Under the pieces are notes generated by a model. The model was not told where the DNA came from. It ran no database searches and saw nothing but the letters and a program-made list of their open reading frames with translations. DNA of 64,000 bases from NCBI GenBank assembly GCA_964342185.1, contig CAYFER010000012.1, positions 1,329 to 65,328 of the forward strand, given 5' to 3'. Of the stretch, positions 55,432 to 62,981 are shown piece by piece. Each line of letters begins with the position of its first letter. The first letter of the stretch is position 1. The translations under genes and the position numbers were made by a program. This stretch comes from an uncultured Vicinamibacteraceae bacterium. Its GTDB lineage: Bacteria > Acidobacteriota > Vicinamibacteria > Vicinamibacterales > UBA8438.

Positions 55432-58107
55432 ATGAGGCTCAAAAATTTTATCGGCTTTTGTTTGGTTGCGCTGACGGCGACGTCTGGATTACCAGCGTTT
55501 GCTGAAGAGTCGTCAGCTAACGAACCACTGGTAGAGACGGCTGAGCTAGGGCAGTCGGCCAATTTGCCACCTGATGATTCCGGCCCCTTGGTTCGAACCG
55601 TTGAGCTCAACTTTGACTCGCAGGGAGGAGCATCCAGCGTTGACCTTGAGACTTACCTCTACTACATGGAGATCACCAATCACATAAGTGCTCCAAGCCA
55701 AGGTAGATGGGTGCCGTATACAAATGAAGTTGAGCAGGTCTTAATTGATGATTTTAGAAGGCTTTGGGATACCGGTTTTCTCGACGACCTGTCGATTGAT
55801 GTCTTTGATGAGCCCTATAGTAACGGTGTTGTTGGGAAACACATTACTTTTCGTTTTGAGGAGCGCGCCCGCGTCAAACTCTATACGTTTGAAGGATCTG
55901 AGGAGCTGGATCGAACTGATATCGATACGGCTATGACGGACAATGGATTGTCTATTCGCCTGGACGCGTTTCTTGATCAGAGAATGATTCAGCAAATTGA
56001 GGCGCTCCTGCGTACCATGTTCTCTGCCGAAGGTTATCCCTTCGCTGAAGTGAGCCACGAATTGAGTGACCTTCCAGGTGGCCCTAAGGTGGTTCAACTC
56101 ACCTTTAACATGAGTGAAGGCGCCAAGGTACATATTGAGGAAATTGACTTTGTTGGAAATGAAGATGTGAGTGACGGTGAGTTAAAGAGTCAGATGGAAC
56201 AGATTAAGGAGCGCTGGTGGCTTTCCTGGATGACCGGGCGTGGTACGTATAAAGAAGCGTTATTTGAAGAGGATGCTGATCGCATCGTAGCTCACTATCT
56301 GGAACGCGGTTACATTGACGCGAGGGTGGGTTCGCCCCAGACGGATTATCTGGAGCTATCTGAAGACGGTAAATCCCGTGGTATGCGCCTTCGAATTCCG
56401 GTCAACGAAGGTGAGCGGTATCGCATTGGCGACCTGCGCTTTGATGGAAACGAGCTTCTGACTGACTTTGGCGTCAACCAGATCTTCGAGGAGGTAGAAG
56501 AGGGAGATTACTACAGCCAGAGAGAGGTCGTCGAAGCGATCGAGGCGGCGCGGGAAGCGTACGGGAGTCGAGGCTATACAGAATTCACAGCATTTCCGGA
56601 CTTGCAACGACGGACATCGACGGAATATGCGGTGGGAGCTGATGTGGAGACCGTGCCGTCTGATTCGGGAGAAGAAAGTGAGGCTGGCCAGACGCCACCA
56701 GAGGATCCGTACGCGCATCTGCAGCGACCAACTCATTTGGATGGAGATCCGATTGTCGATGTGACGATGCGGATGGAGGAGGGAGAGCAGCAGTTCGTTA
56801 ATCGCATTACATTTGTTGGTAATGAGAGCACTCATGATGAGGTGATTCGTCGTGAGGTTCAGTTGCTGGAGAATGGCGTCTTTAATACGTCGGCGCTCCA
56901 GAATAGTATCCGTCGCTTGAATCAGTTGGGATACTTTGAGCCAGTAGACGAATCAGCTGTAGAAATCGTCAACGTAGAAGGAGAGGAAAACGAGGTCGAT
57001 CTAAACGTACAGCTTATCGAGACCAATTTAAATCAACTGACTTTTGGTGCCGGCGTCTCACAGTTTGATGGTCTGTTTGCCCAATTGTCGTTTGCTACGA
57101 CCAACTTTCTTGGTCGAGGTGAGACGCTGTCGGTTGGGTTTCAGAATGGGTCACGGCTGCGCAACATCAATCTTGGGTACAGCAAACCGTACATGTTTGG
57201 CAAGAACATATCTGCTGGTGCCAACGTATTCTCCCGCAAAGTGGAATGGATTGGGGCGTATGCCGAGGATTCGTATGGGGGCAGTGTCACCTTCGGGCGG
57301 CCCCTCGCAATTTTCACTCGGGGCTTTCTGACGTATAGCTACGAAGCCACTTCGGTTGGGGACGTGAATCCAGCACTAATGAAGGACCCAAACATTTGGG
57401 CGATGAACCCGTTTTTTGCGGATAGTTTAATGTTGAGCACGCAGGGACGGCGCATAGTGAGCAAGATTGCGCCATCACTCCGTCATAACACTGTGGATCA
57501 TCCGATTTTTCCATTTTCTGGAAACAGTTACACCGCGACAATGGAGTTCGCAGGGCTTGGTGGCAGCACGTCGTTCTATAAGCCGATTCTGGAAGGGGTT
57601 TGGTATCTCCCGCAATCGTCACGTACGATTATCGGGATTCGTACCCAATATCAGCATATCGTTTCAGGTGAACCGGATACGATTCCTATTTTTGAGCGGC
57701 TCTGGCTTGGTGGAGAGTTCTCCATGCGCGGCTTCGACATCAGGCGTGTCGGACCTACAGTGGCTGATATAGATCCTAGTGTTGACCCAGACAGCTATCA
57801 GGGCAAGATGATTATGGGGGGCAATAAGAGTCTATTGTTTAATGGTGAATTCCAGATCGTGGTTGCGCAACCGGTTAGGATTGTGTTTTTCTACGATGCG
57901 GGCCAAGTCCAAGATTTTGGTCAGAGTTTTGCGGTGGATCAATTTAAAACCTCAACAGGAGCAGAACTCCGTTTCTTTATGCCGGTACTTAATGTTCCAT
58001 TTCGATTGATTTATGCATGGAATCCACAGCGAGAAGGAATTTATAACGATCGATTCGAGATTCAAGAAGAATCTGTATTCCGTTTTGCGATAGGGACTAC
58101 GTTTTAG
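55432..58107 (+). CDS. bamA: Outer-membrane protein assembly factor BamA
   Basis: Signal peptide, five POTRA-like repeats, NFLGRGE, GGEFSMRGF (VRGF-like), terminal FAIGTTF. Confidence 0.95.
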   Translation: MRLKNFIGFCLVALTATSGLPAFAEESSANEPLVETAELGQSANLPPDDSGPLVRTVELNFDSQGGASSVDLETYLYYMEITNHISAPSQGRWVPYTNEVEQVLIDDFRRLWDTGFLDDLSIDVFDEPYSNGVVGKHITFRFEERARVKLYTFEGSEELDRTDIDTAMTDNGLSIRLDAFLDQRMIQQIEALLRTMFSAEGYPFAEVSHELSDLPGGPKVVQLTFNMSEGAKVHIEEIDFVGNEDVSDGELKSQMEQIKERWWLSWMTGRGTYKEALFEEDADRIVAHYLERGYIDARVGSPQTDYLELSEDGKSRGMRLRIPVNEGERYRIGDLRFDGNELLTDFGVNQIFEEVEEGDYYSQREVVEAIEAAREAYGSRGYTEFTAFPDLQRRTSTEYAVGADVETVPSDSGEESEAGQTPPEDPYAHLQRPTHLDGDPIVDVTMRMEEGEQQFVNRITFVGNESTHDEVIRREVQLLENGVFNTSALQNSIRRLNQLGYFEPVDESAVEIVNVEGEENEVDLNVQLIETNLNQLTFGAGVSQFDGLFAQLSFATTNFLGRGETLSVGFQNGSRLRNINLGYSKPYMFGKNISAGANVFSRKVEWIGAYAEDSYGGSVTFGRPLAIFTRGFLTYSYEATSVGDVNPALMKDPNIWAMNPFFADSLMLSTQGRRIVSKIAPSLRHNTVDHPIFPFSGNSYTATMEFAGLGGSTSFYKPILEGVWYLPQSSRTIIGIRTQYQHIVSGEPDTIPIFERLWLGGEFSMRGFDIRRVGPTVADIDPSVDPDSYQGKMIMGGNKSLLFNGEFQIVVAQPVRIVFFYDAGQVQDFGQSFAVDQFKTSTGAELRFFMPVLNVPFRLIYAWNPQREGIYNDRFEIQEESVFRFAIGTTF

Positions 58108-58181
58108 TGGGTAAACAGAGAAACATTGACAATCTAGGAAAGCTTGAAGAGTTTAAACGACAAACGAAGAGGTTGGCGCTC

Positions 58182-58784
58182 ATGAGATTTGTAATAACCG
58201 CCACAATCGTAGGACTTGTGGCAGTGACTGGTGGCGTGGCTTTCGAGGCGGAAGCTGGACAGGTGGGAGATAGGCAGTTTGCCTTTATTGATGTTCAGCG
58301 TGTTGCTTCTGAGTCCAATGAGGGACAGGCAGCAAATACTAAAGTTGATGAATTGAGTCAGCAGAAACTGGGTGAGATTGAAGCTGTGAACGCGGAAGGA
58401 CAGGCTGAGATAGACACGCTCAATCAGGATCTACTGGAGGCACAACAGAAACTGCAGCAGGGTCAAAGTGTGATTAGCCAAGAGGCAGCCGCTACACTCC
58501 AGCGTCAGATTGCGCGATTACAGCGAGATGTTGAGCGCACAGGCGCTGATCTGCAGGCTGAAATTCAAAGGATGAGCCAGGATGCTGAGGTGGAAGTGCA
58601 GGAATTGCAACAGCAACTTCAAATGGACTTCGAGAGACGTCTTCTTCCAGCTATTGACCAGATCGCTACGGAAAAAGGGCTTGCTTTTATTTTAAGTGCC
58701 CAGCAGGGATTAGTATGGGCGGACCCGTCGTTGGATCTTTCCCAGGAACTGATTGACCTATTGAATGCTCCAGAAACTCCTTAA
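58182..58784 (+). CDS. skp: Periplasmic chaperone Skp/OmpH
   Basis: Signal peptide from ATG 58182, AFIDVQRV, long Gln/Glu-rich coiled coil, IDQIATEKGLAFIL...DLSQELI; follows bamA. Confidence 0.88.
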   Translation: MRFVITATIVGLVAVTGGVAFEAEAGQVGDRQFAFIDVQRVASESNEGQAANTKVDELSQQKLGEIEAVNAEGQAEIDTLNQDLLEAQQKLQQGQSVISQEAAATLQRQIARLQRDVERTGADLQAEIQRMSQDAEVEVQELQQQLQMDFERRLLPAIDQIATEKGLAFILSAQQGLVWADPSLDLSQELIDLLNAPETP

Positions 58785-58870
58785 AACCTGTCGTGAATCT
58801 AGGTGGCATCTTTAGATTTGCGCAGCTTTTTTGGAGCCCACAGATATATTGAAGCTAGATAGTTGGAACG

Positions 58871-60223
58871 ATGGCGACTCAAAATCATTTACGCAAGTCG
58901 GATAGGGTTGAGTCGGAAGGCGGTCCGGCCGGGTCGAATGTATCGCCGGCATCGCTGAGTCCAGGGTTTCTCGACATTCCCGTTTTACTCGACCGTCTTT
59001 CCTATCGCTATCCCTCATTGCTTGTCGATGCGGTAACGGAGCATGAACCAGGTTCTAGGATGGTTGCTGTTAAGAACGTAACTGTCAATGAAGAGTACTT
59101 TCAAGGGCACTTCCCTGGGACTCCTCTCATGCCTGGTGTCATGATGATTGAAAGTCTGGCGCAAGTGGCAACGTTGCTGTTGTTGTCGGACGATAGTCAC
59201 GACGGTGCTAGGAATGCTCGTGCGGTTCTCCGTCGCGTCGACAACGCAAAGTTTCGCCGGCAGGTTTTGCCAGGTGATCAACTGAATCTTGAAGTCGTTA
59301 TTCGTAAGCGGTCGAATGACGAGGCCGTTGTTTATGGCGTTGCCAAGACAAGTGAATTTGTTGTGGCTCAGACTGATCTTTTGATCGGGTTTGAGTATGA
59401 CCCGGCGGAAGTTCATGACACAGCAATCGTTCACCCAGCAGCCGTAATAGGTCAAGGTAGTGTGGTTGGACCTCATGCTGTGATTGGTCAAGGAGTTCGG
59501 TTGGGGGAACGATGTCGGGTCGGTGCCTCAGCAGTTCTTGATGGTGACACGGAGATAGGGGATGGTTGTGAGTTTTTTCCATTTACATCAGTTGGTTTGA
59601 TTCCTCAAGATCTCAAGTTTCAGGGTGAACAGACACGGTTGGTGATTGGTCACAGAAATGTATTCCGAGAGGGTGTGACCGTTCATCGCGGTACTCGTGG
59701 CGGCGGTGGGCTGACCTTGATTGGGGACGACAATGTGTTCATGGCCTACGCACATGTCGCCCATGACTGCATTATTGGCGACCGCAACATTTTTGGAAAC
59801 GGAGCAACTCTTGGTGGCCATGTGGTGGTGGAAGACGAAGCAGCCGTTAGTGCCTATTCAGGTGTGCACCAGTTTTGTCGTGTAGGACGGCAAGCATTTG
59901 TTGGTGGTTATTCAGTGATAACGAAAGACGCTGTTCCATATGGCAAAACTGTCGGAAATCGAGCCCGTATATATGGTTTAAATACAATTGGGCTCGTTCG
60001 ACGTGAGTGTTCTCCGGAGACAGTAGTCAAACTTAAGAAGGCCTATCGATATTTACTGCAGTCAAAGCTGAATACCACACATGCACTCTTACGCATTGAA
60101 AGCGATCCGGAGTTAAAGTGCCCGGAAGTCGACTATTTACTTGCGTTTATTCGCACGTCGAAACGTGGAGTCAATCTGCGCCGCCCGTCGCGACGGATGG
60201 AGCAAGTCGCAGTCGACGAATAG
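58871..60223 (+). CDS. lpxA: FabZ-LpxA fusion: 3-hydroxyacyl-ACP dehydratase plus UDP-GlcNAc acyltransferase
   Basis: FabZ motifs RYP.LLVD, KNVTVNEEYFQGHFP and MPGVMMIESLAQ, then hexapeptide repeats with PQDLKF, TVHRGT, AHVAHDC, LGGHV and VHQF in one frame. Confidence 0.93.
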   Translation: MATQNHLRKSDRVESEGGPAGSNVSPASLSPGFLDIPVLLDRLSYRYPSLLVDAVTEHEPGSRMVAVKNVTVNEEYFQGHFPGTPLMPGVMMIESLAQVATLLLLSDDSHDGARNARAVLRRVDNAKFRRQVLPGDQLNLEVVIRKRSNDEAVVYGVAKTSEFVVAQTDLLIGFEYDPAEVHDTAIVHPAAVIGQGSVVGPHAVIGQGVRLGERCRVGASAVLDGDTEIGDGCEFFPFTSVGLIPQDLKFQGEQTRLVIGHRNVFREGVTVHRGTRGGGGLTLIGDDNVFMAYAHVAHDCIIGDRNIFGNGATLGGHVVVEDEAAVSAYSGVHQFCRVGRQAFVGGYSVITKDAVPYGKTVGNRARIYGLNTIGLVRRECSPETVVKLKKAYRYLLQSKLNTTHALLRIESDPELKCPEVDYLLAFIRTSKRGVNLRRPSRRMEQVAVDE

Positions 60224-60271
60224 ACCTACCTCAGAGAAGAAATATCAGCGAGAACGGTGCGTGAAACCACT

Positions 60272-61102
60272 ATGCGGATTGGTCTAATCGCTGGCAATGG
60301 ACGGTTCCCGTTTCTCGTGATAGATGCTGCCCACAGCCTCGGTCATGAGGTCACGGTCATTGCGATTCGTGAGGAGGTTGACGCCGCCATCGAATCGTTT
60401 GCTGACGGCCGTGCGGGATTTGTAACTCATTGGATATCACTTGGTCAGTTGGGGCGTTGTATCGCGATCCTCAAAGAGGCTGGTGTGTCGCGTGTAATGA
60501 TGGCTGGGCAGGTCAAACACACAAAGTTGTTTTCTAAGGTTGTGCCCGACCTGACTTTTTTCTCTGTGTTGAAGCGACTTCGGAATCGGAACACGGATTC
60601 TGTAATCTCTGCTGTGGCTGAGGTCCTCAGTGAGAATGGTATTGAATTGTTGGATTCAACTTCATTCCTGAAACCACTGTTGGCAAGTGCGGGAGAATTG
60701 TCAAAGAGAAGTCCTTCGGAAGCCGAAGCATCAGATCTCGCATTCGGTTACGAAATGGCTGATACCATTGCTGCCCTCGACATCGGACAGACGATTGTTG
60801 TCAAAGACCGTGCTGTGGTGGCTGTTGAGGCAATGGAAGGAACAGACGACGTAATCATTAGGGCCGGTCGATTGGCTGGTGCGGGAGCGTGTGTCATAAA
60901 GGTGGCAAAACCTGAACAAGATATGCGTTTCGATGTTCCTGTGGTAGGTGTGGCAACTATTCGTAGTATGCAGGAAGCCGGAGCGACAGTCCTCTCGGTG
61001 GATGAAGGACGAGCTCTAATGCTAGATGGTGAGGCAGTAATCAGGAGTGCTGACGAAGCGCATATTGCGATTGTTGGTCGCTCGCGAGGATCTAAAGAAT
61101 GA
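60272..61102 (+). CDS. lpxI: UDP-2,3-diacylglucosamine diphosphatase LpxI
   Basis: [45 protein letters not shown]; directly after lpxA. Confidence 0.93.
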
Positions 61103-62115
61103 AGCACTCGGGGCGGTTACGGGTAGGTGTGATAGGAGTCGGTTATGTCGGACGCCACCATGCGAGGATTTTGAGCAACATTGAAGATGTGGAACTCGTG
61201 GCGGTAGCTGATATTGATCACGATCAGGCAAAACTGGTTGGATCGGAGAACGGGTGTGGTTTTACAAAGAACCACCATCGACTGATATATGGTGGTAGCG
61301 GTGACTGGGATGATCCAAAACGAGAGAAAGGTGTTGACGCGGTAACAGTCGCAGTCCCGACCGAAGATCATGCGAGTGTGGCGATCCCTATCCTGAATTC
61401 AGGAATTCCTGTTTTGGTGGAGAAGCCGATTGCGGCTTCTTTGGCGGAATCGGACAAGATGATTCAGGCTGCCAGCGACGGCGGAACTCTTCTCGCAGTC
61501 GGTCATTCAGAACGCTATAATCCGGCGGTTACGACGGCTATGCCTCTTGTGAATGAGCCAAGATTTATTGAGGTGCATCGGTTGTCGGCATTTCAAGGAA
61601 GGGGTTTAGACGTTGATGTGATTTTCGATCTCATGATCCATGATCTTGACTTACTTCTCTCTATCGTAGGAGCAGAAGTTGAATCGGTTGAAGCTGTTGG
61701 CGTCCCGGTGCTTACCGACCGGCATGATATAGCAAACGTCAGACTTCGTTTTACCAATGGGTGTATTGCGAACCTCACGGCGAGTCGAATTAGTCGAGAT
61801 CGAGTTAGGAAATTAAGGTTCTTTCAACACTATTCATTGGTTACGGTAGATTGTGCTGCCAAAGCAGTGGAAGCGTTTCAAGTAATTCGCGACACTAAAG
61901 GCGAGGCGACGATTAAGGGCGGCCCGATAGAGGTTCCGGCTGGAGAACCGCTTGAATTGGAACTTCGTGGATTCGTGGACGCTGTAAAGGCCAATCGCGG
62001 CCCGTTGGTCGATGGTGCGGCTGGACGACGCGCCTTGGAACTGGCCGAAAGGATTGCAGTGTCTATGGACTCTAGACATAGTGGAGAAAGTTCTCCCGTT
62101 TCTGGGGCACTGTGA
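61099..62115 (+). CDS. Gfo/Idh/MocA oxidoreductase, GnnA-like (UDP-GlcNAc 3-dehydrogenase candidate)
   Basis: [48 protein letters not shown]; located in the lipid A cluster. Confidence 0.85.
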
Positions 62116-62981
62116 TTGCTATGGCGGCGACACGAGGTCACCTCACTGGTAATGATTTCGAAGGAATAAGAGAATATGACCTGATTCAACTGGGAATCGC
62201 TGCGGACGAGCGGCTCCGAGCCCGGCGTGGGCAGCGCGTGACTTATGTGAGGGTTCAAGAAATATCTTCTTTTATGGGCCCTGCCGATGTTGAGGTTCTG
62301 CCTGGTGCCGGTGAACTTCGGATCGTGGTAGAGCCAGAGACCCAGGACGAAGCGCTGTCATTAACACGTGCTGTTTCCAGTGTTTCAGGCAAAGTTCCGT
62401 TAACGGGTTTTCGCCTCGACCAACTAGCGGAATTGTGCAATAACGAAGGTCGGGCGTTGGGGCGTTTGCTTACAGATCTTCGCAAGGCTGGACTCAAAAT
62501 GGTGTCGGCGTTGTCGGCAGAGACGACACTTGCACGTAAGTGGCTAGATGTGAGTAGCGATGTTGGCATCGATGTGGCAAGGTTAACCGTTGAGCGACCT
62601 GAGGGTGATCGTGGTGTTGATTTAATGACGAAGATTTCAGAATGGGGTCGGTCTACAAAGCATGTTCATGCTTTTGCGCCACTGGCTGGTAGGATGGACG
62701 ATGGGGTCACAACAGGTTATGGTGATATGCGGATAATTGCGCAAGCGCGTCTGTTGGTTGACAATATCGATTCTATTCAGGTTGACTGGTCTCGCTTAGG
62801 CGCCAAGCTTGCCCAAGTTTCTTTGACGTTCGGCGCGGACGATATTGACTCCGTGTCGTCGAGTGACTCACGTGAGCGCGGGCCGAGGCGAATGCCCGTG
62901 GAGGAACTTAAGCAGAACATCTTGGCGGCAGACCGAGTCCCGGTTGAGCGTGATGGGTGTTTTGAGACGTCTGCTTTATGA
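62112..62981 (+). CDS. Degenerate MqnE/CofH-like radical-SAM-fold protein lacking CxxxCxxC
   Basis: N-terminal DLIQLGIAADERLRARRGQRVTYV and C-terminal TGYGDMRIIAQARLLVDNI...LGAKLAQVSLTFGADDID...VPVERD match MqnE/MqnC-type proteins, but only 2 isolated Cys are present. Confidence 0.75.
   Translation: MIAMAATRGHLTGNDFEGIREYDLIQLGIAADERLRARRGQRVTYVRVQEISSFMGPADVEVLPGAGELRIVVEPETQDEALSLTRAVSSVSGKVPLTGFRLDQLAELCNNEGRALGRLLTDLRKAGLKMVSALSAETTLARKWLDVSSDVGIDVARLTVERPEGDRGVDLMTKISEWGRSTKHVHAFAPLAGRMDDGVTTGYGDMRIIAQARLLVDNIDSIQVDWSRLGAKLAQVSLTFGADDIDSVSSSDSRERGPRRMPVEELKQNILAADRVPVERDGCFETSAL

Follow-up and report, generated by a model that had tools for sequence, protein, structure and literature searches.

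A FabZ-LpxA fusion gene in Vicinamibacteria of the phylum Acidobacteriota

The balance between FabZ and LpxA sets the ratio of phospholipid to lipopolysaccharide, and E. coli regulates this balance through LapB, FtsH and the turnover of LpxC. The two enzymes compete for R-3-hydroxymyristoyl-acyl carrier protein (ACP), and certain alleles of fabZ suppress defects in lpxA and lpxC (PMC12444477). In E. coli, LapB serves as a scaffold for LpxA, LpxC, LpxD and FabZ (PMC13477621). Covalent linkage of FabZ to a lipid A enzyme is also on record, as a bifunctional LpxC/FabZ (NF009667 / PRK13188) is found in Bacteroidetes, Chlorobi and Verrucomicrobia (Opiyo et al. 2010, PMC3087551). Here we describe a gene in which FabZ is joined to LpxA. 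The gene resides in a stretch of 64,000 nucleotides (hereafter called the window) of contig CAYFER010000012.1 in assembly GCA_964342185.1, which derives from an uncultured marine Vicinamibacteraceae bacterium. Sequence comparisons make it likely that this is a genuine bifunctional gene inherited class-wide in Vicinamibacteria (Acidobacteriota).

The arrangement from which the fusion departs is the lpxD-fabZ-lpxA-lpxB cluster of E. coli, Neisseria and most Gram-negatives, which is also present in other classes of Acidobacteriota. The two arrangements have in common the enzymes, their order, the bamA/skp neighbours and the catalytic residues, and the spacer between the separate genes of Acidobacteriota is 3 nucleotides in frame. 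Here, however, the stop is gone, the enzymes form one chain, and lpxD has moved out of the cluster.

LpxC/FabZ resembles the new fusion in that it covalently couples FabZ to a lipid A enzyme where fatty acid and lipid A synthesis diverge, in a clade-wide manner and from genes that were neighbours. However, the partner in that protein is the deacetylase LpxC and FabZ is C-terminal, whereas here the partner is LpxA, a direct competitor, and FabZ is N-terminal. The fusion matches only positions 319-456 of NF009667 (125.6 bits versus a cut-off of 465), and it has no LpxC domain. The LapB hub likewise brings both competitors for R-3-hydroxyacyl-ACP into one complex, but it is a non-covalent and regulated scaffold formed by a third protein, in contrast to the permanent covalent 1:1 link seen here.

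An NCBIfam scan of the fusion matched no model for a FabZ/LpxA architecture, and no curated family was found. Our literature search did not find a natural FabZ-LpxA fusion described; its matches concern operons or plasmid constructs, and LpxC/FabZ was the only described fusion that it found. The architecture is apparently undescribed, and it is a modest variation on two well-known enzymes, analogous to LpxC/FabZ. It reveals no new chemistry and no new kind of system. The original prediction, which was made from the window DNA alone, had considered that the fusion might prove to be already characterised and widespread. It is indeed widespread, both across the class and by recurrence elsewhere, but no characterisation was found.

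A single frame with two catalytic signatures

The fused gene (Table 1) is one open reading frame (ORF) of 450 codons plus a stop, which begins with ATG and has no internal stops in the ORF listing of the window. Pfam detects a FabA-like domain at residues 47-161 (6.7e-28; PF07977, 97.5 bits versus a cut-off of 23), as well as Hexapep (PF00132) and, at residues 353-434, Acetyltransf_11 (PF13720; 3.9e-20). Among NCBIfam models, the LpxA equivalog NF003657 scores 316.9 bits (cut-off 226), with fusion residues 179-434 covering profile positions 4-258 of 264, and a second LpxA equivalog, TIGR01852, scores 292.1 bits (cut-off 231.05). The FabZ equivalog NF000582 matches residues 39-171 with 136.5 bits (cut-off 113). 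A sequence search of the PDB aligns residues 33-169 with E. coli FabZ (6n3p) and residues 179-433 with residues 6-259 of E. coli LpxA. No PDB chain spans both domains, as sequence and fold searches match FabZ-only or LpxA-only chains.

The FabZ domain shows the expected spacing, wherein the catalytic His is located in GHFPG and the Glu is found 14 residues further on (compare His54 and Glu68 of E. coli). These residues are His80 of the GHFP motif (codon at 59108-59110) and Glu94 of the MIESLAQ motif (59150-59152). In the LpxA half, the AHVAHDC motif includes His295 and His298 within 59753-59764, where the His298 codon occupies 59762-59764 and is followed by that of Asp299 (59765-59767). The VGGYS motif includes Gly346 (59906-59908).

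The HMMER alignment to E. coli LpxA (1lxa/2jf2) runs without gaps through residue 384, such that each query residue number equals that of E. coli plus 173. By this mapping, His298 corresponds to His125, Asp299 to Asp126, Lys249 to K76, His317 to H144, His333 to H160, and Gly346 to G173. Among these E. coli residues are the catalytic pair His125/Asp126, positions that bind the uridine diphosphate (UDP)-sugar, and the Gly173 ruler.

Across 61 aligned fused orthologues, the FabZ block GHFPGxPxMPGV...E, including His80 and Glu94, is invariant, as are His295, His298, Asp299, Lys249, His317 and Gly345/346 of LpxA. All of the mapped LpxA residues, His333 among them, are invariant or nearly so. Comparison with the closest relative gives a ratio of nonsynonymous to synonymous substitution rates (dN/dS) of 0.097 (FabZ) and 0.052 (LpxA). 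The two domains have kept their catalytic residues, and purifying selection acts on both across the clade. Thus, the ORF, the Pfam and NCBIfam matches, the PDB alignments and the conservation data all agree with the original proposal of a single-polypeptide FabZ-LpxA fusion in which both catalytic signatures are intact.

The sequence of the junction, as read in the window DNA, is GFEYDPAEVHDT. The absence of a stop and of a usable internal start at this site had likewise been proposed, and a survey of start codons in fused loci bears this out. No in-frame start is conserved near the junction, and two of 15 fused loci lack any ATG, GTG or TTG in the 22 surrounding codons. Internal initiation of a separate LpxA was therefore rejected, because a conserved ATG, GTG or TTG near the junction is absent.

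An AlphaFold2 (AF2) model of the fusion monomer was used for secondary structure and junction length only, and not for domain packing. The FabZ part has a predicted local distance difference test score (pLDDT) of about 90, and Foldseek aligns it with solved FabZ structures (6n3p, 4h4g, 1zhg) at TM-scores normalised by target length (TMt) of 0.83-0.89. The LpxA half is modelled with regular short strands at residues 180-350 and helices at residues 382-429. The last hot-dog strand (residues 164-176) leads almost straight into the first beta-helix coil at residue 180, and the linker is therefore very short.

The N-terminal 34 residues are extra in the fusion of this genus, as most orthologues are 416-421 amino acids long and start near 'SLDIP' ('M/V-SLDIP'). 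On inspection of the window sequence, no ATG, GTG or TTG occurs between 58871 and the FabZ domain. With a pLDDT of about 30 for residues 1-32 in the AF2 model, this extension is probably disordered.

Distribution and origin of the fusion

The fused frame, from about residue 30 to about residue 450 and with no stop past the FabZ start, is present in 40 of the 41 nearest genomes, which belong to one order and 17 families. The fusions of these 40 relatives are 56-95% identical, and several come from single-contig assemblies; the lone exception is a draft genome that is 88% complete. The two genomes sampled from the sister order in the same class are fused as well. In a collection of 5.8 billion proteins from independent projects, 119 of the 120 best clusters carry PF07977, PF00132 and PF13720. 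The exception (P0065) is a 318-amino-acid piece encoded on a 1-kb contig. Among 80 loci that cover query residues of about 34-434, only six are single ORFs, all from Vicinamibacterales or Luteitalea, and the others are adjacent genes. Named records with a true single-ORF fusion come from Luteitalea sp. and from metagenome-assembled genomes (MAGs) of Vicinamibacteraceae and Vicinamibacterales.

The genome under study is a draft of 105 contigs, and thus one could imagine that a sequencing or assembly error deleted a stop, or that the frame is a pseudogene-like read-through limited to this assembly. Since the uninterrupted frame is kept in 40 of 41 related genomes of the order, at the identities given above and in single-contig assemblies as well, such an artefact is exceedingly improbable. 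The fused protein clusters and the named Luteitalea and Vicinamibacterales records bring this explanation to the point of being effectively refuted.

We also sampled 300 Acidobacteriota genomes, each at least 90% complete. All Vicinamibacterales genomes with a match in this sample are fused. For the other classes in the sample, there was no fused match among the matches listed: two-domain matches all contain a stop, and the others are LpxA alone. Eight LpxA matches within long open frames from other Acidobacteriota classes were checked as possible fusions, and FabZ and LpxA are separate in all eight.

Unfused relatives suggest how the gene might have arisen. Much of the cluster clpC-bamA-skp-fabZ-lpxA-lpxI, in which fabZ and lpxA are still separate, is found in a Pyrinomonadaceae MAG, two Thermoanaerobaculia MAGs and an unclassified MAG. 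Six unfused loci were selected for having matches that the search had merged over a stop. All six read '...MVDRE*RM...', where the stop of fabZ, a single codon and the ATG of lpxA follow each other in one frame. In alignment, the length of the linker in the fused proteins is exactly that of the old stop, the spacer codon and the lpxA start. Loss of one stop is therefore a sufficient origin for the fusion. In such a scenario, the ancestor of Vicinamibacteria would have carried adjoining fabZ and lpxA genes in the same frame, with the fabZ stop and one spacer codon between them, and loss of the stop would have merged the two into one chain.

Similar proteins occur in other lineages. An exhaustive search of 1.84 billion representatives uncovered about 20 further two-domain clusters with 33-48% identity to the fusion. 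For 10 of these, Pfam detects a FabA-like domain plus hexapeptide repeats, and nine of the 10 also carry PF13720. Two named proteins, MFA5097302.1 from Candidatus Margulisiibacteriota and MEK9657845.1 from a MAG labelled 'bacterium', are FabZ-LpxA fusions that are annotated only as LpxA. These other fusions likewise place FabZ ahead of LpxA with a short linker between the domains, but they differ from the Vicinamibacteria proteins by their low identity, by the LPHRYPF motif in most of those examined, and by the presence in some of a dead FabZ or of two FabZ domains. Specifically, P0124 is a FabZ-FabZ-LpxA protein of 586 amino acids, and P0143 and P0205 retain the hot-dog domain without its catalytic His.

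In a rough FastTree phylogeny of LpxA domains, fused sequences that do not belong to Vicinamibacteria are interspersed with unfused ones and imply at least 14 changes of state, and so the fusions of other lineages are of independent origin. Those of Vicinamibacterales group in a single clade (local support 98%), and the tree does not settle whether the sister order shares this origin. As a separate observation, P0125 is a Vicinamibacteria-like fusion of 424 amino acids ('FYRYPS') whose middle part is nonsense rich in Arg, His and Pro, after which LpxA sequence resumes. This oddity is probably due to a double frameshift in the assembly.

Catalytic state of the FabZ half and candidate assemblies

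Only two proteins in the genome, which is 95.5% complete, match PF07977. The second is a stand-alone, FabZ-like protein of 159 amino acids (contig C28:1599-2075, + strand; NF000582, 134 bits). It retains LPHRYPFLLVD and the catalytic Glu, and carries Arg at the position of the catalytic His ('ARRHDERPALPP'). Its orthologues are found order-wide at 69-80% identity, and the sister order yields a match of 53%. The orthologues read 'NHSSGGQP', 'SHRPGARP' or 'ARSQGEAP', with no conserved His at or beside the catalytic position. One family from a different class of Acidobacteriota, with unfused fabZ and lpxA, has a comparable copy that lacks the His. The paralogue may be a non-catalytic hot-dog partner subunit.

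Because this second copy lacks the catalytic His, the fused domain is the genome's only canonical dehydratase of the FabA/FabZ family. A separate fabZ elsewhere in the genome, a prospect raised in the original prediction, was found insofar as there is a second FabZ-like gene, but not as a gene that carries the catalytic His. There is no second LpxA in the genome. LpxC is encoded by a separate frame of 310 codons on contig C1 and, together with LpxD on contig C8, indicates that the lipid A pathway is present. Named public records of the fusion say only LpxA, and therefore the apparent lack of a canonical fabZ in Vicinamibacteria is a naming artefact. Recognition of the fusion thus provides a correction to these annotations.

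The N-terminal FabZ motif LPHRYPFLLVD reads LSYRYPSLLVD in the fusion, wherein R-Y-P and the downstream D are kept. The change of PHRYPF to SYRYPS, which had been pointed out previously, is present at 59000-59017 of the window. Members of the order have the form [SC][YH]RYPS and those of the sister order P[ST]QYPF, whereas unfused FabZ proteins of other classes have PHRYPF and most of the independent fusions examined in other phyla retain LPHRYPF. Thus, the change is a feature of the order Vicinamibacterales and did not result from the fusion. Our literature search found no published statement of the role of the PHRYPF motif.

We consider the fused FabZ domain most likely to be the housekeeping dehydratase, since it is the only FabA/FabZ-family protein with a catalytic His and experiences strong purifying selection (dN/dS near 0.1). 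Loss of FabZ activity is unlikely because no other catalytic FabZ is present in the genome. The earlier suggestion that dehydratase activity may be changed by the altered motif needs qualification, given that this is the only FabZ in the genome with the catalytic His, that its dN/dS is about 0.1, and that the change is specific to the order.

Several points weigh against the view of one chain with two working enzymes. The score for a second FabZ model, TIGR01750, falls narrowly under its cut-off (138 versus 155.15 bits), and this result and the altered LPHRYPF motif may reflect changed FabZ properties, either in oligomer contacts or in specificity. The halves may be separated by proteolysis after translation. 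The AF2 monomer model is of moderate quality overall (pLDDT 66, predicted TM-score 0.44) and is silent on the oligomer. Finally, the His-less FabZ halves of P0143 and P0205 indicate that hot-dog catalysis is not obligatory to the architecture.

Alternatively, the FabZ half could be a non-catalytic or re-purposed module that binds acyl-ACP and serves as a substrate sensor, gate or oligomerisation scaffold, with housekeeping dehydration carried out by another protein. The altered motif with its sub-threshold TIGR01750 score, the retention of the hot-dog domain in P0143 and P0205 despite the lost His, and the existence of a second FabZ-like gene in the genome are all consistent with such a role. 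However, His80, Glu94 and the whole GHFPGxPxMPGV...E block are invariant under a dN/dS of 0.1, the other FabA/FabZ-family gene is the one without a catalytic His both here and in relatives, and no alternative canonical dehydratase was found. Thus, we consider this explanation unlikely, and favor a catalytic, housekeeping FabZ domain.

LpxA forms trimers, FabZ forms hexamers built from three dimers, and hot-dog active sites are formed across the dimer interface. If both halves are active, one chain would perform both reactions on (R)-3-hydroxyacyl-ACP, namely dehydration toward fatty acids and phospholipid and transfer to the UDP-sugar toward lipid A. The fusion would hold the competitors to a 1:1 ratio, as they would be made, located and turned over together. 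With a near-rigid linker of about six residues between trimeric LpxA and hexameric FabZ, the chains would most simply close up into a D3 particle, LpxA3-FabZ6-LpxA3, in which three FabZ dimers are capped by two LpxA trimers. This is the assembly that we predict to be the likeliest, and the original prediction had likewise proposed a FabZ hexamer that carries two LpxA trimers.

A different arrangement, modelled on the mycobacterial HadAB and HadBC dehydratases, is conceivable. Each fused FabZ might pair with the free His-less paralogue, so that an LpxA trimer would carry three FabZ/pseudo-FabZ heterodimers with one active site each. The two copies are complementary, in that the fused copy has His and Glu but has lost PHRYPF, and the free copy has PHRYPF and Glu but has lost His, and the location of hot-dog active sites at the dimer interface is compatible with such a pairing. 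Moreover, the His-less paralogue is present in essentially all genomes of the fusion clade, and a second copy is rare in other classes (3 of about 110 genomes at E <= 1e-22). However, this scheme is purely inferential, the gene for the paralogue lies away from the lpx cluster, and the link to the fusion is weakened by the similar His-less paralogue in a family of another class whose fabZ and lpxA are unfused. The heterodimer scheme therefore strikes us as very unlikely.

With either the closed D3 particle or the LpxA trimer bearing three heterodimers, the fusion might go beyond operon compaction and create a symmetric machine that is obligatory where the routes for acyl-ACP divide. The geometry of this machine, and not regulated proteolysis, would partition docked (R)-3-hydroxyacyl-ACP between lipid A and phospholipid, and would replace control of the LapB/FtsH type that E. 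coli uses. We regard this broader proposal as speculative and rather improbable. If it holds true, the complementary motif losses would be the trace that a division of labour has left in the two FabZ copies.

A class of abundant soil and marine Acidobacteriota has joined both competitors in one chain, and other lineages have independently done so too. Thus, the fusion offers a natural experiment on hard-wired 1:1 stoichiometry, and a sample with which to address whether the two enzymes work as one particle.

Features of the locus and its neighbours

The gene order clpC-bamA-skp-fabZ::lpxA-lpxI-(GnnA-like)-mqn is syntenic throughout Vicinamibacterales, and coordinates for the window are given in Table 1.

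Table 1. Coordinates of the fused gene, its parts and its neighbours in the window
Feature	Position	Strand	Basis or remark
bamA	55432-58107	+	Pfam Omp85/POTRA; upstream neighbour
skp/ompH	58107-58784	+	Pfam OmpH; upstream neighbour
fabZ::lpxA fused gene	58871..60223	+	ORF, domain profiles, orthologous single frames in 40/41 relatives
N-terminal extension, residues 1-34, genus-only, probably disordered	58871..58972	+	Orthologue lengths, AF2 pLDDT
FabZ hot-dog dehydratase domain, residues 35-172	58973..59386	+	NF000582, invariant residues, Foldseek, dN/dS
Junction/linker, about residues 173-178 (EYDPAE)	59387..59404	+	Junction of unfused relatives, AF2, start-codon survey
LpxA left-handed beta-helix, residues 179-352	59405..59926	+	NF003657, E. 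coli LpxA alignment, conservation
LpxA C-terminal helical domain, residues 353-434	59927..60172	+	PF13720; AF2 helices
lpxI	60257-61102	+	Pfam LpxI_N/LpxI_C; downstream neighbour
GnnA-like Gfo/Idh/MocA oxidoreductase	61099-62115	+	Pfam GFO_IDH_MocA; overlaps lpxI end by 4 nucleotides

The lpxD gene is absent from its usual place between skp and fabZ (58107-58870 of the window). It is located instead on contig C8 (76242-77297), directly behind a heptosyltransferase-like gene.

The best NCBIfam match for the GnnA-like protein is UDP-N-acetylglucosamine (UDP-GlcNAc) 3-dehydrogenase, at 186.6 bits and under the cut-off of 450. The presence of this neighbour hints that the acceptor for the LpxA half could be UDP-GlcNAc3N, which would give a diamino-sugar lipid A. 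Further downstream, an ORF at 62112-62981 that adjoins mqnA has a weak match to the C-terminal domain of CofH/MqnC (PF19288, 1.4e-07).

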